Of a DNA stretch of 64,000 nucleotides, positions 4,761 to 62,646 are shown in pieces; position 1 is the stretch's first letter, and every line of letters begins with the position of its first letter. This DNA comes from a virus, in the IMG/VR virus record IMGVR_UViG_3300037755_000497, positions 32,001-96,000 of that record. One strand, written 5' to 3'. The notes under the pieces were generated by a model. It had not been told where the DNA came from, made no database searches, and was given only the letters and a program-made list of their open reading frames with translations. Made by a program: the position numbers and the translations under genes.

Positions 4761-5951
4761 TTATTTCTTTTTCTTGCCTGACTTTGATTTAGGCTTTTTC
4801 TTATCTTTACTCTTTTTTTCTACTTTCTTTTTGCCTTTAGATTTCTTTTTAGGCTTTTCGTCTTCATCGTCATCGTCTTCATCGTCTTCATCGTCTTCAT
4901 CGTCTTCATCGTCTTCATCGTCTTCGTCATCGTCTTCGTCTTCATCATCATCGTCATCATCATCGTCATCATCATCGTCTTCATCTTCGTCATCATCATC
5001 GTCTTCATCATCATCGTCTTCATCATCATCGTCTTCATCATCATCATCTTCGTCTTCATCATCGCTATCAACTTCAACGTCATCATCTTCGTCTTCGTCA
5101 TCGCCATCAACTTCAACGTCATCATCTTCGTCTTCGTCACTTTCAACTTTTATTTTGCTACCCTTTTTTAACTCTTTTAAAAGTTTTTCAAGTGCTTTCA
5201 TAGAAAATGTTGGTTCAAGTTTTTCTAAATCTTCCATCTGGCCAATAACTTCTTCGTCACTTTCAAATGCACCTGATTTTAAAAGTTCAGCTGATTTACC
5301 CCATTTGGTATCTTTGTATCTTCTCATGACACTTTTCTTACCATTATGGGTAATAATCATTGCTTTACCCTTATCCAAATTAAAAAACTTTTTAAGGCTT
5401 GTTGTTTCGTCATCCATTTTTTCCATGAATTCTTCAAACACATCTTTAGCAAGCCTTAGAACTTGTACACATTTATCTGTAACGTCTTTAACTTTACCCT
5501 TCTTACCTTCTTTCAGTTTTACAGCGTTAACATAGTAAGAAGTTTGTTGCATAAAAGGTTTGTGCGCTTGGCTTTCCTTCTTTGACATCTTTTTGCCACT
5601 TTCTTCTTTTTCTTTAATTTTGTTATAAATTTCAAAACCGTATTCACAAACTGGACAATCTTCATCGTAGGCCCTAGCACAAGTAACTGGTTTACCAATT
5701 AATTTATTGCCCTTTCTTTGCTGGTGAATCATAGTCATTTTATAAGGTAGATCATTCTTAGAACCGGGGTAAGGTGGTAGGGGCATAACATGCGTTTCTA
5801 CACAATCTAATTTCATGTAGTCTGTACTATTACCGCTTTTCTTCTCACGTGATTTCTTAACACCACTTTTTAATTTCTTTTCATCATAATCAAATGATAG
5901 CTTGTTACTAGCTTTCTTCTTTTCTTTTTTGTCTTTTGACTTCTTAGCCAT
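4761..5951 (-). CDS. Single-stranded DNA-binding protein (T4 gp32-like) with ~95-residue Asp/Glu tract and Lys-rich termini
   Basis: PLPP...H...TC...DCPVCE...YYVNAV pattern typical of phage gp32-like SSBs; located between UvsY-like and helicase genes; acidic tail. Confidence 0.7.
   Translation of the reverse strand: MAKKSKDKKEKKKASNKLSFDYDEKKLKSGVKKSREKKSGNSTDYMKLDCVETHVMPLPPYPGSKNDLPYKMTMIHQQRKGNKLIGKPVTCARAYDEDCPVCEYGFEIYNKIKEKEESGKKMSKKESQAHKPFMQQTSYYVNAVKLKEGKKGKVKDVTDKCVQVLRLAKDVFEEFMEKMDDETTSLKKFFNLDKGKAMIITHNGKKSVMRRYKDTKWGKSAELLKSGAFESDEEVIGQMEDLEKLEPTFSMKALEKLLKELKKGSKIKVESDEDEDDDVEVDGDDEDEDDDVEVDSDDEDEDDDDEDDDDEDDDDEDDDDDEDEDDDDDDDDDDDDEDEDDDEDDEDDEDDEDDEDDEDDDDEDEKPKKKSKGKKKVEKKSKDKKKPKSKSGKKKK
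4858..5143. repeat. Imperfect trinucleotide/nonanucleotide repeat encoding the poly-Asp/Glu tract
   Basis: Mixed TCA/TCG/TCT triplets, e.g. (TCTTCATCG)n. Confidence 0.95.
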
Positions 5952-6420: not shown

Positions 6421-9108
6421 TTATTTTGCCTTCTTTGCTAATTCTTCAATACTAAATTTTTCACCGTACCAGCAATCATATAAATCAAAATCTACAACTA
6501 AAGGAACTTTCCATTTCCCTTCGCCTAAAACTCTTTCCATAGTTTGATGGCAAAGTTCCTTTACAATTTTCATTTCACTTTTTGGCCCTTCACCAACAAG
6601 ACCATCGTGAATTGACAAAAGAATTCTTGATTTTAATTTTCTTTTCCTTAACTCTTTTTCTAACTTCAATTTACCCTCAACATAGATTTCATTAGCGTAA
6701 CCCTGAATTGGGAAGTTCATTGCTTGCCTATGAATAGCACCTATATCAAAATCACGCTTCTTACAGTCTTGCGAGTGTTCAGAATTGAACCATTCTGATG
6801 CAGCTGTAAATCTTCTTTTTCTACCTGTTTCTGGTAACTCAAAAAGGCCTACATCAATTGATTGGTCACATATTTCTTCACGCCAATCATGCAAGTAATG
6901 GTACTTCTCAAAGTAAATATCTATCATGTCCTGAACATCTTCAACGTCCATACTAAATTGCTGGGCTAAAGTGTTGGCATCCATACCATAGTTAAGTCCA
7001 AAACCAAGTGTTTTTGCGAAAACCCTATGTTCATCAAATATACTTGATAACAATATTTTATTTTCAATTGATTTTAATTTCTTCTTATTCTTCCTATACT
7101 TTTCTTCCCAATTTTTTGGTGGCTTGTAGCTTCTTATTTTTGCAAATTTTTCTTCTGTCATATCCTTATCAAGGAAACCCAATGTAGTGCCAAACTTAAC
7201 AACGTTCCTTGTATGTAGATCAACACCTTGTTGTATTTCTTTAATCATGGTCTTATCTTTTGATAAGAACGCACCTACCCTTAATTCCAACTGTGCAAAG
7301 TCAGCTGAAAATAGAATCCAATTCTTTTTCTTCGTTTTAAACAATTGCCTAATATTAGCATCTGGAAAAAGTGGGTTAGGCCTTGGTATATTTTGAAGGT
7401 TTGGTTCACTTGATGACATCCTTCCAGTTCTTGGCGTGTGAATATTCCAACTACCATGAATGAAACCTTTATCATCTACTGATTGGAGTAAACCGCTTTC
7501 GCCATCTTTACCATCAAGGAACGTCTTCTTCATTGTTGAAAGACTTCTATGCAATAATATCAATTTTGGTATCTTTGCGTATTTTCTTTTCCTTGCAAAT
7601 TTTTCTAAAGTATCAGCACCAACCGAGTAACCTTTTTTACCACGCTTAATTCCCATTTCTTCAAATGGGTAATCTTTAGATTCAAAGTAGGCCAGAAGTT
7701 GGTCTGGTGAATTCAGGTTTAAATCTTTTATCTTTGTTGCTTTTCTTACTTTACTTTCTATGTCAATAATTTTTGCATCAAAAAGCCTACCAATTTCTTT
7801 TAATCTTTCAACGCCAAACTTCATCCCACGGTATTCACAATCGGTCATTAATTGAGTTAATGGCATTTGCCTATCAAAAAATAATTTTTCTAGTTTTTCT
7901 TTTTTTAATTCTTTTCTAATTTTTTTCTCAAGCCTATTATTGCCACAAACGTCAATTGCAAGATATTTGCAAATCATTAAAGGTGGAATGAATTGATAGG
8001 ATTTTTTATTCTTATGTGATTTGTTTGTGTACGGCCACAGAAGTGTATCGTAAGCACCGTAGTTAATTCCCCTTAACTTCATGCAAGTATTCAAATCGTG
8101 CTTTTTGTTTTCATCAATAAGCGCATCGCCTATGATGGTATCAAAGTCAAAATTTTTATATGGAATTTTATTTTTCCTACCAAATTTTTGGTCGAACTTT
8201 CCATTATGAAGTGTCTTTTTTGCTTTAGATGCATTAACCCTTCCTACAGTAGCAAAAATTCTTTTCTTGTTCGCCTTTACAAATTTATTTATTTTCTTTG
8301 CTAACTTTCTATCTTCATCTGTCCATAGTTTGTGATTCATGTGAATATCTTCATATTCAAGCATAGGTACTATTGTTGCAAATTTTCCGTTATCAGCATA
8401 ACCAGCGTTAATTATTTTGTGCTTATAAAATTTTAATCCTGTAGTTTCGTAATCTGTGTTGAACCTTTCAACGTTTGAATAGTATTCTTCAAATTCTCTT
8501 AAATCTTTTTTTGATAACACTAATTTAAATTCTGGGTCTTTGGTTCTTCCATCATCACCAGTTTTTGCAAATTTTTTTGCTTTCTTCAAATCATTGATAA
8601 TATAATCGTCAAATTCCCATTTTGTTAAAGCTGAAACTGGTGAATAGGTTGGTATTATTTTTGTTGAAAATGTCCTTTCTTTTTTCTTATATTTGTAATC
8701 AATATCAAAATCATCAATGTGCCCCTGGAAATCACCAATGGTATTTTCATTCATTAATTGCATCAATGGTGCTTTACCCATACAAACAATTATCTTTGGC
8801 CTTACTTCCAGAATTTCTTTGGCTATATGACTTTGACAAGCTACAACGTGCTTCTTCCCAATATCACTTGGCTTGAATGCTTTACATTTAACTGCAAATG
8901 TTAAGTAAACATCATCACGATTGATTCCAGCTTTTTCTAAAAGGTAGTTTAATTTTGAACCGCCATCACCAGAAAATGGTTCACCAGTCTTGTCATCTGT
9001 AAATGAAGGGCAATCACCCACTAGCATGATACTAGCTTTAGAAGGGCCAACGCCTTCCATACAATTTGTATCACATTTATAAGCTAAATCACAATTATCG
9101 CAAAACAT
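6421..9108 (-). CDS. Family A DNA polymerase with N-terminal family-4 uracil-DNA glycosylase-like domain and 3'-5' exonuclease (SPO1-like architecture)
   Basis: CxxC...GEPFSG..G (UDG4); DYETTGL, HNGKFD, YLAID (Exo I-III); TGRMSSSEPNLQNIP, ADFAQLELR, AKTLGFGLNYG, NFPIQG, IHD. Confidence 0.96.
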   Translation of the reverse strand: MFCDNCDLAYKCDTNCMEGVGPSKASIMLVGDCPSFTDDKTGEPFSGDGGSKLNYLLEKAGINRDDVYLTFAVKCKAFKPSDIGKKHVVACQSHIAKEILEVRPKIIVCMGKAPLMQLMNENTIGDFQGHIDDFDIDYKYKKKERTFSTKIIPTYSPVSALTKWEFDDYIINDLKKAKKFAKTGDDGRTKDPEFKLVLSKKDLREFEEYYSNVERFNTDYETTGLKFYKHKIINAGYADNGKFATIVPMLEYEDIHMNHKLWTDEDRKLAKKINKFVKANKKRIFATVGRVNASKAKKTLHNGKFDQKFGRKNKIPYKNFDFDTIIGDALIDENKKHDLNTCMKLRGINYGAYDTLLWPYTNKSHKNKKSYQFIPPLMICKYLAIDVCGNNRLEKKIRKELKKEKLEKLFFDRQMPLTQLMTDCEYRGMKFGVERLKEIGRLFDAKIIDIESKVRKATKIKDLNLNSPDQLLAYFESKDYPFEEMGIKRGKKGYSVGADTLEKFARKRKYAKIPKLILLHRSLSTMKKTFLDGKDGESGLLQSVDDKGFIHGSWNIHTPRTGRMSSSEPNLQNIPRPNPLFPDANIRQLFKTKKKNWILFSADFAQLELRVGAFLSKDKTMIKEIQQGVDLHTRNVVKFGTTLGFLDKDMTEEKFAKIRSYKPPKNWEEKYRKNKKKLKSIENKILLSSIFDEHRVFAKTLGFGLNYGMDANTLAQQFSMDVEDVQDMIDIYFEKYHYLHDWREEICDQSIDVGLFELPETGRKRRFTAASEWFNSEHSQDCKKRDFDIGAIHRQAMNFPIQGYANEIYVEGKLKLEKELRKRKLKSRILLSIHDGLVGEGPKSEMKIVKELCHQTMERVLGEGKWKVPLVVDFDLYDCWYGEKFSIEELAKKAK

Positions 9109-11268: not shown

Positions 11269-12420
11269 TTATTTATCCCTTAATTCTTCTATATACTCAA
11301 TAACGAATTCTTGTATGGCCTCTGTCCTTTCAGCTTGACATTGCTGGACATATAGTGCTTCAAATAATGAAGCTGTCTTCTGTCTTATTTTTTCATACCT
11401 TTTCTTATAAAGTTTGTTATCTTGTAAAGGCGTTGATTTTTCTTCATCAGTTAATTCAATTTCTTCTAATTCTTTAGTTCTTAAATAATCTAATAGCCTA
11501 TCTTCGGCACCACTAGTAGAAAGGTGGTTTGGCTTTGGAAAAACACCATTACCTTCATTAGCGAATTTCAAACCAGTAATCTGGGCCTTCAAAAACTTTT
11601 TAATCGTAGTTTCATTATCATTTATAATGTCAACTGCTAGTAAAAAGTGTTTAAAATCTTTTCCAGTCTGGGAAGGAACTCTAAGAACTTTCTGCTTATA
11701 AAATTCTTTCCTAAGTTTCGCCCAACGCTTTGCTAATTGTAACGCTTTTTTAATTCTCTTACTTTCAACATCTGTTACTATTTTTTTCTTTTTAGATTTC
11801 TTCTTCTTTTCTACAATTTCTACTTCATAAGAAGGGTGCCCCTTATTTTTCTTTAATTCATTTTCCCTATACTTTATTAAAGCATCACTCATAACTTTAA
11901 ACTCAACAGCTGTTACATTATCACCCCTAAACTTATTGCATCTACCACAACAAGGTAGGACATTATCAATTGTATATCCTTTAAAATTATCTATCCTATC
12001 TAAACCGCACCCAGCTTCAAACCCAATTGTTTTTACGTTACAATAGTAGCAATTTTTATTAATTATTTCAGTGTAATCACTCTTTTTTAGATTAAAATTA
12101 ACACCCCTTTCATTCGCCTGTGATTTCGCTCTATTAAATCTAATTAATGGTTTCTTTGTAGCATCCGTTATACAATTTATGCATCTTCCTAAGTATCCAT
12201 CCTTCCTGCTAGCATCACTGTTAAAAAAAGATACATCTTTTATTTTTTTACAAGCCGAACATTTCTTTTCTGTAACTATTAAACTACAGGCAACAGATTT
12301 TGCCTGTTCTTTCTTGCATTGCTTACATTGGTTTTTAAAACCTGTTTTACTTTTTGTACGTTTATCAAAATTACTAATTGATTGTTTCTTTTTACAAGTA
12401 GTACATTTTTGTTTCTTCAT
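11269..12420 (-). CDS. HNH endonuclease (two Zn-ribbon repeats + HNH) fused in frame to an unknown replication-associated domain
   Basis: CTTC..CKQC, CSAC..CINC, CYYC...GLDRIDNFKGYTIDNVLPCCGRCN, followed by ~190 unrelated residues. Confidence 0.75.
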   Translation of the reverse strand: MKKQKCTTCKKKQSISNFDKRTKSKTGFKNQCKQCKKEQAKSVACSLIVTEKKCSACKKIKDVSFFNSDASRKDGYLGRCINCITDATKKPLIRFNRAKSQANERGVNFNLKKSDYTEIINKNCYYCNVKTIGFEAGCGLDRIDNFKGYTIDNVLPCCGRCNKFRGDNVTAVEFKVMSDALIKYRENELKKNKGHPSYEVEIVEKKKKSKKKKIVTDVESKRIKKALQLAKRWAKLRKEFYKQKVLRVPSQTGKDFKHFLLAVDIINDNETTIKKFLKAQITGLKFANEGNGVFPKPNHLSTSGAEDRLLDYLRTKELEEIELTDEEKSTPLQDNKLYKKRYEKIRQKTASLFEALYVQQCQAERTEAIQEFVIEYIEELRDK

Positions 12421-12560
12421 ACAATTACCCTTATTAATAAGACCCAGGATGTATTTAGCACCCTGGGAATAAACGGTGTTCCACCAGCTGTCAGAATTAA
12501 ATTTGATTTCTCAATCTTCATCCTAATTTTTGGTAGCTTTTTTTGCATTGGTCGATGCAC
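12417..12560 (-). CDS. Short ORF (47 aa, not in track); possibly the detached N-terminus of the gene invaded by the HNH
   Basis: GTG start behind a GGGGG RBS-like run; MHRPMQKKLPKIRMKIEKSNLILTAGG...; its stop overlaps the HNH ATG (ATGA). Confidence 0.5.
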   Translation of the reverse strand: MHRPMQKKLPKIRMKIEKSNLILTAGGTPFIPRVLNTSWVLLIRVIV

Positions 12561-12586: not shown

Positions 12587-13684
12587 TTATTTTTTCTTTT
12601 TACCTTTTGATTTTTTCCCTGATTTTTTATCAGACTTCTTTTTAGTGGAAACTTTTTCTTTGTTTGATTTCCCACCTAACTTCTTCATTGCCCATTTCTT
12701 CAAGTCATCTGTTTTACCAATTGAGGTTGGTTTTTCAGCACCTAGAATTGAAACTAACATTAGCAATTCAGCATATTTTAACTTATCAACACCAGATGGG
12801 TTCTTTTTAAGTTTAGCTACACTTTTTTCCATTTCGGCCCGTTTAGCTTCCCTTTCTTTCTTCTTATCATTAGCAGTTTTACCTTTTGTGTCAGTTTTTG
12901 CTTTTGATTTTTTTCCTTTCGGTGCTTCCTTTACTTTTGACTTTTTACCTTTTTTAGGCTTTTCGTCTTCGTCTTCATCTTCATCTTCGTCTTCATCTTC
13001 GTCTTCTTCGTCTTCGTCTTCATCTTCATCTTCGTCTTCTTCTTCTTCATCTTCGTCTTCGTCTTCATCTTCGTCTTCGTCTTCATCTTCGTCTTCGTCT
13101 TCATCTTCGTCTTCGTCTTCATCTTCGTCTTCGTCTTCGTCTTCGTCTTCTTCGTCTTCTTCGTCTTCTTCTTCGTCTTCTTCTTCGTCTTCTTCTTCGT
13201 CTTCTTCGTCTTCGTCTTCTTCTTCGTCTTCTTCGTCTTCTTCATCAGAATCATCTTCATCAGAATCATTTTCATCTTCATCAGAATCATCATCTTCTTC
13301 GTCTTCTTCGTCTTCTTCGTCTTCTTCGTCTTCATCACCATCTTCTTCATCATCTTCTAAAGATTCTTTACAATATGGACAATGATCTTCACCAACTAAA
13401 ATATCAGAACCACAAACTGGGCAACCACCAAAGCTTCCAGAATCTTGGCCTTCGGCCGCTGCTAATCTTACAGTTTCAATTTGGTCAGCGAATAACCTGG
13501 AAGCAACAAGTGTGTTTGTAACACCAGCTAACTCTGTTAAGAAATGCATTAAGTTTAAATCGTCACCAGCTGGCACTTCAATTTTCTGTGCTTCACAAAA
13601 CTTTTGAAGCGCACCAAATAATTTTTCATAGTTTGGTTTTGATTTCTTTTCTTTTTTTGATTTTGTTTTTGACTTCTTAGCCAT
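12587..13684 (-). CDS. Zn-ribbon protein with ~130-residue Asp/Glu tract, basic segments and C-terminal HeH/SAP/Rho-N-like motif; candidate histone chaperone
   Basis: CPVC...CPYC; acidic tract; VDKLKYAELLMLVSILG...KTDDLKKW; strong RBS (GAGGT). The ORF is secure; function is inference. Confidence 0.6.
   Translation of the reverse strand: MAKKSKTKSKKEKKSKPNYEKLFGALQKFCEAQKIEVPAGDDLNLMHFLTELAGVTNTLVASRLFADQIETVRLAAAEGQDSGSFGGCPVCGSDILVGEDHCPYCKESLEDDEEDGDEDEEDEEDEEDEEDDDSDEDENDSDEDDSDEEDEEDEEEDEDEEDEEEDEEEDEEEDEEDEEDEDEDEDEDEDEDEDEDEDEDEDEDEDEDEDEDEEEEDEDEDEDEDEEDEDEDEDEDEDEDEKPKKGKKSKVKEAPKGKKSKAKTDTKGKTANDKKKEREAKRAEMEKSVAKLKKNPSGVDKLKYAELLMLVSILGAEKPTSIGKTDDLKKWAMKKLGGKSNKEKVSTKKKSDKKSGKKSKGKKKK
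12964..13357. repeat. Imperfect (TCTTCG/TCTTCA)n repeat encoding the Glu/Asp tract
   Basis: Directly visible; includes 18-bp units TCTTCATCTTCGTCTTCG. Confidence 0.95.
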
Positions 13685-13723: not shown

Positions 13724-13915
13724 TTAAAAATCTGTAGCTTTAACAGTTTTCCTATTATTATTAATACATCTTTGCTGGGCATCAGCTATCATAAGGTAGA
13801 CTTTTTCATTTAGCTTTTCTAATGCTTCACTTGAAACATTAAGACCAGTTGACTTAAGTGCTTCTTTTGTTTTTGAACCTATTAACAACATTTCCTTTCC
13901 TTGCTTACTTCCCAT
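13724..13915 (-). CDS. Bacterial-type histone-fold protein (Bd0055/HBb-like singlet)
   Basis: LLIGSKTKEALKSTGLNVSSEALEKLNEKVYLMIADAQQRCINNNRKTVKATDF shows the histone-fold pattern with the RKTVxxxD signature and a short alpha3. Confidence 0.88.
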   Translation of the reverse strand: MGSKQGKEMLLIGSKTKEALKSTGLNVSSEALEKLNEKVYLMIADAQQRCINNNRKTVKATDF

Positions 13916-15458
13916 TTTTATTTCTCCTTTGAATTACGCTTACGCTACTGTAAGTGTTTAGAATGGTTTTACCTTTTCTTCTTAGCTTCTCACTTTTTGT
14001 ATCCCATAGAAAATCGAAAGTTGGTTTACTTTTTTTACCAAATAATTTCCTTAATACATCATCGTAGTCACGTTCTACCCTACCCTTCATCTGGTTAAAG
14101 TCTTGGATGTTTATAGGGATGGTGCATATACCATGGTCAAAAGTTTTTATACTTAAACCAGCAATACCTTTTCTTGTTGTTATTACAACATCAAATTGTT
14201 TTTTAATTCCCAGATTTATAATGTCAAAGAATTCTTTGTCAGCACTATATGCCAGCATAAATTCTTTCCAATCTTCTTTCCAATCTTCTTTATCGTTAAT
14301 TTCTTGTTTGCTAACGTTACCAACCAACAACTTCACACGCAAATTTTTATTTAATAATTTTTCTCTTAAATACAATCCTTGCCATCTTCTTTCAACAAAA
14401 ATAATTACTATTTTTTTCTTCTTGACTTTTTGAAGCGTCCTGTTGATTACAATTTTGTTCCTTTTTTTATCTCTGGCCATATTGTAAAGAAGTTCAGTGT
14501 TGTTACTTGTATCGTCATAATCATCACCATCGTAATCAGTTGGCACTAAATTTATTTTTGCTGGTAGCCTAGAACCTAAATCTGTATCAGGTATGATGTG
14601 AATTAATTTTCCAAACAAATCATAAATTAAATATTCTTTCCCATCTTTTCTTTTTTCATCAGCACTAAGTCCTATTCTAAATTTTGCTGGACATAAATCT
14701 AAACAACCATTGAATGAAGCCGCCCCATATCTTTGAACTTCATCAGCTATTAATATTCCACACACTGGGTAATATAAATCTTGGTTTGATTTGTTTCTTA
14801 AACTTTGAACCATACAAACATTTATTTTACCAACTTTCCTATTCCCAGGATAAGGTAAATCAGGGAAAGATTCTGTCCACGCTTTTTTTGTTGCGAATAC
14901 GCCACCAGCACCACCTATGTCTTCTAATTTTAAATTTAATAAATCATTTCTTAGTGCTTCTTTAATCCATTGTATCTGGTGAATCTTTTCCCATAGTACA
15001 ACTAGACCAACTTGTTCACTTCTTGCAATTGCTTCTAAACCTATTACAGATTTACCACAAGAACATGGGCCGCGAACAATTCCCTGTTTCTTTTTTAAAA
15101 TTATTTTTACAGCTTTCTCTTGGTCTTTTCTTAGGATTGTTTTTGAATCATATTCCGTTTTTTTTGTTACACGTTTAAATTTTATAACAACATCATGGTT
15201 TCGTTTTCTTAGTTCTTTTTTTATTCTTGGTAAGCAACCACGTGTGAATCTTATAACTTTTTTATCATCACTTATTTTAAAACTTTCGTAAATTTCAGGT
15301 TCATTGTCTGTTGGAAGCCCCATTCTTTCCATACGGATGTACATTGGGTTTATGTGTTTACATAATTTTTTTAGATTAAGGATTGCCCTTCTATCATCTT
15401 TTAAAAGTTTTTTGTAACTCAAACTTGCGTGTGAATCAACCTTGATTTTTACCTTCAA
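13905..15458 (-). CDS. SF2 helicase (UvsW/XPB-like)
   Basis: LRKDQEKAV, GPCSCGKS, DEVQ, GLSA..R.DG, QMKGRVER. Confidence 0.88.
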   Translation of the reverse strand: MKVKIKVDSHASLSYKKLLKDDRRAILNLKKLCKHINPMYIRMERMGLPTDNEPEIYESFKISDDKKVIRFTRGCLPRIKKELRKRNHDVVIKFKRVTKKTEYDSKTILRKDQEKAVKIILKKKQGIVRGPCSCGKSVIGLEAIARSEQVGLVVLWEKIHQIQWIKEALRNDLLNLKLEDIGGAGGVFATKKAWTESFPDLPYPGNRKVGKINVCMVQSLRNKSNQDLYYPVCGILIADEVQRYGAASFNGCLDLCPAKFRIGLSADEKRKDGKEYLIYDLFGKLIHIIPDTDLGSRLPAKINLVPTDYDGDDYDDTSNNTELLYNMARDKKRNKIVINRTLQKVKKKKIVIIFVERRWQGLYLREKLLNKNLRVKLLVGNVSKQEINDKEDWKEDWKEFMLAYSADKEFFDIINLGIKKQFDVVITTRKGIAGLSIKTFDHGICTIPINIQDFNQMKGRVERDYDDVLRKLFGKKSKPTFDFLWDTKSEKLRRKGKTILNTYSSVSVIQRRNKNGK

Positions 15459-17600: not shown

Positions 17601-17643
17601 GTTATACTTAGTTATACGATGTTATTGTATAACAATGTAGAAC
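17601..17643. promoter_or_regulatory. Cluster of GTTATAC/GTATAAC heptamers upstream of the plus-strand regulator
   Basis: GTTATAC at 17601 and 17611, GTATAAC at 17627, degenerate copies at 17621 and 17637. Confidence 0.7.
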
Positions 17644-62607: not shown

Positions 62608-62629
62608 AAATAATTGTCAGTTCTATTAT

Positions 62630-62646
62630 GTTATACTTTGTTATAC
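62630..62646. promoter_or_regulatory. GTTATAC-TTT-GTTATAC element
   Basis: Upstream of the protease gene. Confidence 0.75.

Follow-up and report, generated by a model that had tools for sequence, protein, structure and literature searches.

An HLp-like FtF histone in the replication operon of an uncultured myovirus and its probable origin in Bacteriovoracaceae-type bacteria

Introduction

Bacterial histones are a recent discovery whose roles in vivo are debated, and the copies carried by phages are known from computational catalogues alone. HLp of Leptospira perolatii forms tetramers around which about 60 bp of DNA are wrapped, irrespective of sequence (PMC12701072), and the histones of Bdellovibrionota are abundant, essential nucleoid proteins (PMC11789641). 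Schwab et al. (2024; PMC11390915) defined the face-to-face (FtF) histones together with a separate class of ‘phage histones’ that have a C-terminal helix, and set the ‘bacterial dimer’ histones, to which HBb belongs, apart from the FtF type by their missing dimer-dimer residues. Viral FtF histone-fold proteins (VFFHFP) were subsequently reported in tailed phages from IMG/VR by Liu et al. (2025), who predicted that they form tetramers and suggested that they were acquired from hosts.

Here we describe a phage-borne FtF histone, P0001, for which we can add to the catalogues a candidate donor lineage (75-82% identity), an insertion site in a replication operon, sister phages that have no histone, and signs of long-term retention. 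Because these three elements (donor lineage, histone-less sisters and defined insertion) come together, the locus offers a tractable phage-host pair with which to study how a host chromatin protein benefits a virus. It also predicts that Bacteriovorax-like predatory bacteria are infected by a large myovirus; the phages that our literature searches turned up for this predatory group were a microvirus and dwarf myoviruses of Bdellovibrio.

Results

The carrier phage and the histone locus

The 64,000 nt analyzed, referred to as the window, span bases 32001-96000 of a virus record in IMG/VR whose full length is 108,875 bp. All of its long ORFs are on a single strand. Searches with PHROGs identified structural genes for tail sheath, tape measure, baseplate wedge, tail proteins, head maturation protease and a virion structural protein, as well as replication genes for a family-A-like DNA polymerase, two helicases and an exonuclease. 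A primase-helicase (Pfam) and an EndoVII/HNH-like protein (PHROGs) are also encoded in the window. The carrier is an uncultured myovirus of the Caudoviricetes with a GC content of 35%. Since its DNA polymerase is at most about 30% identical to those of GenBank phages, it is a phage without a cultured relative. No tRNA genes were found in the window by ARAGORN.

The histone gene lies in the replication block of this phage, where the following features were annotated (window numbering, all on the minus strand):

13724..13915, minus strand: histone gene, 63 aa plus stop (protein P0001), alpha3-truncated, FtF (HLp-like); assigned from ORF and translation, PDB matches and fold
13924..13929, minus strand: Shine-Dalgarno sequence AAGGAG, read from the sequence, within the 3' end of the helicase gene and with an 8-nt spacer to the histone ATG
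13905..15458, minus strand: SF2 helicase, 517 aa, ResIII/Helicase_C, weakly XPB/Rad25-like (Pfam, PHROGs, PDB)
12587..13684, minus strand: acidic zinc-ribbon protein, 365 aa, downstream of the histone gene by 39 nt (translation)
12443..12467, minus strand: terminator-like hairpin 3' of the acidic-protein gene (consensus scan alone)
11269-12420, minus strand: EndoVII/HNH-like protein, 383 aa, with N-terminal Cys-rich repeats (phrog_1035, E 5.6e-18)

The order of the block is small ORFs, SF2 helicase, histone, acidic zinc-ribbon protein, EndoVII/HNH-like protein, primase-helicase and DNA polymerase. The first-pass annotation, made from the sequence alone, had described the gene as a 63-aa ORF with a characteristic histone motif pattern, coupled to an SF2 helicase gene among the replication genes of a phage, and this observation holds. 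The protein carries the motifs LLIGSKTKEALK and NVSSEAL, a long helix and RKTVKATDF. Its ATG start (13915-13913) precedes the helicase stop codon (TAA, 13907-13905), which gives an overlap of 11 nt between the two ORFs, and the DNA polymerase, primase-helicase and helicases surround the gene in the myovirus genome. The helicase matches Pfam ResIII (1.7e-7) and phrog_16, DNA helicase (1.3e-25), with weak PDB matches to Rad25/XPBII; we had considered it as an SNF2-like enzyme and rejected this in favor of the ResIII and weak XPB/Rad25 relationship.

The histone ORF ends in a double stop, TAATAA, and is followed by 39 nt with an AGAGG site and then by the same-strand gene for the acidic protein. 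The latter has basic ends, a CxxC...CxxC zinc ribbon (CPVC...CPYC) and a tract of well over 100 residues that consists almost purely of D and E (at about 12930-13370), and its Pfam matches are limited to weak zinc-ribbon hits. The hairpin behind this gene is a possible end of a helicase-histone-acidic protein transcription unit. A sigma-70 promoter scan gave matches at background level only. Elsewhere in the replication block, a second low-complexity acidic tract is found around 4848-5130 within a 396-aa ORF (4761-5951, minus strand). At the DNA level, both this tract and that of the acidic protein match many Bacteriovoracales genomes spuriously.

GTATAAC-N3-GTATAAC direct repeats occur in the window at 17601-17643, 19354, 31342, 48163, 59789 and 62620-62646. 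Nine matches were counted at up to two mismatches, compared with 0.63 expected by chance. They are confined to positions from 17601 onward, among the structural blocks and at the border of the replication block, with none inside it; judging from this arrangement, the repeat may be a late-gene regulatory site.

Fold, subtype and predicted assembly of the histone

PHROGs has no family for P0001, and tblastn found nothing at E<=1 among 50,697 phage records of GenBank. Scans of IMG/VR with the single histone or the single helicase sequence also returned nothing; alignment-based scans did find relatives. In total, we collected 34 close homologues with 60-86% identity and 113 cluster representatives at E<=1e-3. 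Together with the purifying selection described below, these homologues show that the ORF is real and no chance frame.

In a single-sequence phmmer search of the PDB, P0001 matched HLp (9qt0, L. perolatii) with an E-value of 9.3e-11 and about 45% identity across 60 residues, whereas HBb/Bd0055 (8cmp, 8fvx), which the first-pass annotation had taken as the prototype, scored merely 0.045-0.054. A profile built from 71 family sequences extended the matches to HLp (7.7e-27), HTkC (2.2e-16), HBb (2e-15) and HmvA (3e-6), with archaeal histones and NF-YB at about 1e-3. Of the two Pfam families proposed as a check at the outset, CBFD_NFYB_HMF was matched by 27 of 28 close family members, while P0001 alone remained below the gathering threshold (E 0.046; 14.5 bits against 21.4). 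The other, DUF1931 (PF09123), gave no match for P0001 at E<=1 and weak ones in 4 of the 28 relatives. P0001 is a single histone fold of 63 aa and not a DUF1931 pseudodimer, which consists of two fused folds without the DNA-binding residues; on 9qt0, ‘DUF1931’ is a name given by the depositor.

The AF2 model (pLDDT 76) has helices at residues 13-21 and 29-52 and a short three-residue alpha3 at 60-62, in line with the truncated alpha3 (3-4 residues) and shortened alpha2 that characterize FtF alpha3 histones. Foldseek with this model placed HLp first (TM 0.80/0.89, rmsd 1.2 A, 45% identity), followed by HBb and HTkC and then by nucleosomal histones, with TM values of 0.75-0.89 across HLp, HBb and HTkC. 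The expectation of a bacterial-type histone is thus confirmed by both fold and family profile, and P0001 is a genuine alpha3-truncated histone.

The HMMER alignment of P0001 with 9qt0 is in register with the numbering of the HLp paper (PMC12701072). In this numbering, P0001 keeps R49, N53, R55, T61, D62 and F63, which form the tetramer interface and the RD clamp (R55-D62), along with the DNA-contact residues S14, K15, K17, K21 and T57. The RxTxxxD motif reads RKTVKATD and covers residues 55-62. Over the histone family, R49, N53 and R55 are at least 90% conserved. As these three residues are missing from the ‘bacterial dimer’ class (PMC11390915), their presence makes P0001 an FtF-type and not an HBb-type histone, and HBb is not its nearest prototype. 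The N-terminus, MGSKQGKE, has eight residues including two lysines and is followed by the conserved MLLIGSK core. P0001 as a whole is a small, basic protein (net charge about +4).

P0001 is also predicted to form an FtF homotetramer. A four-copy complex prediction reached an ipSAE of 0.86, compared with 0.00 for the best control. In calibration, 20 of 30 proteins whose solved structures are one-chain pairs attained this mark, as did one of 23 solved as single chains; the P0001 job departed from that calibration in its four copies and custom alignment. Three runs shared at least 93% of contacts, with a partner pLDDT of at least 87. The predicted assembly combines a handshake dimer with a second interface, the FtF one, at residues 48-49, 52-53, 59 and 61-62. 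The prediction may reflect likeness to a known structure, since the HLp tetramer has already been solved.

Bacterial relatives and the likely origin of the gene

Scanning prokaryotic genomes, one for each species, we identified 14 histone loci with 65-82% identity to P0001. Twelve of them are in Bdellovibrionota MAGs (Bacteriovoracaceae, Bacteriovoracales, Halobacteriovoraceae and others), on contigs of up to 2.4 Mb, and the closest copies, from the Bacteriovoracaceae lineage, are 75-82% identical. The remaining two (L012 and L015) are on Gemmatimonadota MAG contigs with a GC content of 64-69%, where histones 65-68% identical to P0001 are found in cellular contexts; this suggests that the histone subfamily has spread horizontally between bacterial phyla. 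Most bacterial histone loci have a GC content of 35.5-40%, near the 35% of the phage.

Nine to ten of the bacterial loci share the gene order HD-domain, DUF374, histone, DUF2288, DUF1499, Crp-like, cNMP-binding and P-type ATPase. Many metagenome contigs, several of them about 100 kb long, show this same arrangement. Four contigs of that size (L017, L019, L020 and L026) had been candidates for sister phages and were rejected as bacterial by their DUF374/DUF2288/DUF1499 synteny. Five of the genomes with bacterial loci, 2.5-4.1 Mb in size, encode one to three histone paralogues each. Among the Bacteriovoracaceae-type genomes, G007, G008 and G009 (holding the loci L003, L002 and L006) have three separate histone-profile matches apiece and thus carry histone paralogues. 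P0001 resembles the best-scoring paralogue of these three genomes, the one adjacent to DUF374.

A maximum-likelihood tree of 61 columns, with many open forks and unsettled bootstrap values, groups P0001 with P0002 and P0004 (support 88/86) inside a clade of synteny-confirmed Bacteriovoracaceae copies. A second group with P0013 and P0025 (support 91/96) falls inside the same clade. Phage-side branches are several-fold longer, with a branch of 0.3 for P0001 as compared with about 0-0.05 for bacterial copies. P0001 thus nests among the Bacteriovoracaceae copies, within the weak resolution of so short an alignment.

We also looked for a host link at the DNA level by comparing 20 kb of phage DNA with 201 Bacteriovoracales genomes. 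The comparison yielded no prophage link; apart from the histone gene, only low-complexity D/E tracts matched, and there were no CRISPR-spacer-like matches among those listed. From the ancestry of the histone, which is the sole basis for the host assignment, we infer a host among the Bacteriovoracales and a transfer from host to phage.

Between P0001 and seven bacterial copies, synonymous sites are saturated (pS 0.62-0.84) and dN is 0.12-0.18, as compared with a dN of 0.02-0.04 among the bacterial copies themselves. The GC3 of the histone gene (0.21) is close to that of neighboring phage genes (0.23-0.27). Saturated synonymous sites, low dN and phage-like GC3 indicate that the capture is old and ameliorated and that the gene has been under purifying selection. 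By these estimates, P0001 changes faster at the protein level than its bacterial counterparts do.

The changes are unevenly distributed. Residues 8-39 (alpha1, loop 1 and early alpha2) are near-identical to those of the nearest bacterial copy, from L003, and nine of the ten core substitutions between the two proteins are within residues 40-54, at the alpha2 end facing the dimer-dimer surface. Because the substitutions cluster near the tetramer surface and the branch is long, the assembly behavior of P0001 may differ from that of the host histone. We draw no functional conclusion from the clustering, since the same stretch (residues 40-52) is also the most variable one in the bacterial family.

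Related phages with and without the histone

Homologues of the SF2 helicase were found at 31-81% identity, and the alignment-based IMG/VR scan with the helicase led to ten loci that were fetched. Two of these represent complete or nearly complete genomes. L097 is a record of 98,732 bp (94% complete) with a helicase identity of 55%, and L102 is a record of 106,178 bp with terminal repeats (100% complete) and a helicase identity of 40%. In both, the helicase is directly followed by a homologue of the acidic zinc-ribbon protein and then by the EndoVII/HNH-like protein, primase-helicase and polymerase:

L097, 8463-9104: acidic-protein homologue, directly after the helicase
L102, 8122-8994: acidic-protein homologue, directly after the helicase

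The C-terminal half of the 383-aa EndoVII/HNH-like protein is kept in L099-L102, between the acidic protein and the primase-helicase.

A search with the histone profile found no histone anywhere in five related phage records, L097 and L102 included; as a positive control, the same search recovered the histone in the source record and in G006, the record holding L016. Since L097 and L102 keep the helicase and the acidic gene without a histone, the histone gene is an accessory insertion between two conserved neighbors. Replication in this phage group does not depend on it, as close relatives lack the gene. Because the histone-less phages also have the acidic protein after their helicase, we assign that protein to the replication module and not to the histone. 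The possibility that this acidic neighbor is a dedicated histone chaperone is weakened by the homologues in L097 and L102. Its PDB matches are of the low-complexity kind only; it may still interact with host histones.

Other phages appear to share the insertion. In L055, a contig of 1.7 kb, a helicase with 49% identity is directly followed by a histone with 67% identity. The contigs that hold the histones P0013, P0025, P0002 and P0030 measure 94,673, 100,610, 123,328 and 104,035 bp, and the first two sizes are also those of the longest contigs for the helicases P0157 (94,673 bp) and P0155 (100,610 bp). These identical contig sizes by themselves suggest that further histone-bearing members of the phage group exist.

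A more distant case is L016 (IMGVR_UViG_3300009506_000024), an unrelated high-GC myovirus fragment in a record of 63.9 kb. It encodes an FtF-like histone of 64 aa with 40% identity to P0001 at 7980-8174 on the plus strand, next to genes for a ParB-like protein, thymidylate kinase (two copies), a helicase and thymidylate synthase. The gene downstream of this histone encodes a J-domain-like protein and not an acidic one. Because L016 is unrelated, FtF histones have entered phage DNA-metabolism modules more than once.

Discussion

What the histone may do in the infected cell

Our preferred explanation, to which we assign a probability of roughly 60%, is that an FtF histone captured by an ancestor of the myovirus from a Bacteriovoracaceae-type chromosome organizes replicating phage DNA alongside the host histone. 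The ancestral phage would have taken the gene from a bacterium of the Bdellovibrionota, and the gene would have been inserted in the replication module, between those for the SF2 helicase and the acidic zinc-ribbon protein. By analogy with HLp, tetramers of P0001 would bind about 60 bp of DNA and wrap or bend it with no sequence preference. The protein would be made together with the phage replication proteins and could top up or join the host histone pool, such that the large new mass of phage DNA would be organized in a histone-dependent cell. Judging from the sequences, mixed phage-host histone oligomers are likely, because the dimer-interface residues are nearly identical to those of the host protein; mixing gains further weight from the chromosomal histone in the likely host lineage being 75-82% identical.

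The same closeness (75-82% identity) to a chromosomal histone in the putative host lineage would suit a phage histone that acts as a dominant-negative or poison subunit with the host histone, altering the nucleoid or transcription during host takeover. Residues 8-39 are nearly identical to those of the L003 copy, the substitutions at 40-54 are near the predicted dimer-dimer interface (48-49 and 52-53), and the phage branch is accelerated. Yet P0001 keeps R49, N53, R55 and every DNA-contact residue, and therefore bears no mark of a defect; residues 40-52 are, moreover, the most variable in the bacterial family too. We regard such subversion of host chromatin as unlikely. It is also quite unlikely, in our estimate, that the histone is a mimic that co-assembles with the host histone and that would constitute, with the SF2 helicase and the polyacidic protein as a histone sink or DNA mimic, a ‘chromatin take-over’ module specific to phages of histone-bearing bacteria.

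Co-transcription with early or middle replication genes would be in keeping with a protective coat, by which the histone would shield phage DNA from host nucleases or DNA-targeting defenses or exclude host silencing proteins. A sequence-independent binder of the host-histone kind cannot, however, discriminate phage from host DNA on its own, related phages do without the gene, and no defense or anti-defense genes were identified beside it. A coating function is therefore decidedly improbable.

Giant-virus histones are components of the virion, and P0001, small and basic with its net charge of about +4, could in principle condense DNA for encapsidation or be injected with the genome in a similar manner. 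The position of the gene disfavors such a role: it is in the replication block and not among the head and tail genes, and the GTATAAC-N3-GTATAAC repeats of the structural blocks are not near it, starting only at 17601. Tailed-phage capsids also hold their DNA at near-crystalline density, which leaves little space for a stoichiometric coat, and we give a virion or packaging protein very little credence. Equally implausible is a passenger left over from the capture of host DNA with little or no role in the phage, which would fit the accessory status of the gene but is disfavored by the selection data (dN far below dS despite saturation, phage-like codon composition, intact Shine-Dalgarno sequence and start) and by its retention beside a helicase of merely 49% identity in L055 and, probably, on two more contigs of roughly 100 kb that hold both genes.

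Comparison with known systems

The ‘phage histones’ of Schwab et al., or VTTHFP (e.g. A0A2E7QIQ9), resemble P0001 in being phage-borne alpha3 histone folds. They have a long C-terminal tetramerization helix and are without RxTxxxD, whereas P0001 ends at alpha3 and has RKTVKATD. HBb/Bd0055 (PDB 8CMP, 8FVX, 9EZZ) shares with P0001 the alpha3-truncated fold and RKTxxxD, at about 30% identity and a TM of about 0.78. It is without the R48/N52 dimer-dimer residues (Schwab logo) and forms DNA-bending dimers, in contrast to P0001, in which those residues are present.

HLp (PDB 9QT0/9QT1/9QT2) is considerably closer, with about 63 residues as compared with 63, about 45% identity and an rmsd of 1.2 A. 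The two proteins have in common R49/N53/R55, the R55-D62 clamp, the C-terminal F63, most DNA-contact residues and, by prediction for P0001, a tetramer through the same interface. They differ in that HLp is encoded on a spirochaete chromosome and P0001 by a phage, in S52 and T56 of HLp being N and K in P0001, and in A13/T27/G29 being G/V/S.

The VFFHFP of Liu et al. (2025) likewise combine an FtF fold on a tailed-phage genome with a predicted tetramer. Their lysine-rich N-terminal tails are 5-40 residues long, as compared with about eight residues and two lysines in P0001, which places it at the lower limit. Phage FtF histones have already been described in that study, and P0001 is no new kind of protein or system. 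The chromosomal histones of Bacteriovoracaceae and other Bdellovibrionota (L002-L011, L013 and L014) share 65-82% identity with P0001; their key residues are all identical, and residues 8-39, the N-terminal half, hardly vary. These bacterial copies are set in cellular synteny and evolve slowly, whereas P0001 has a long branch and is located in a phage replication operon.
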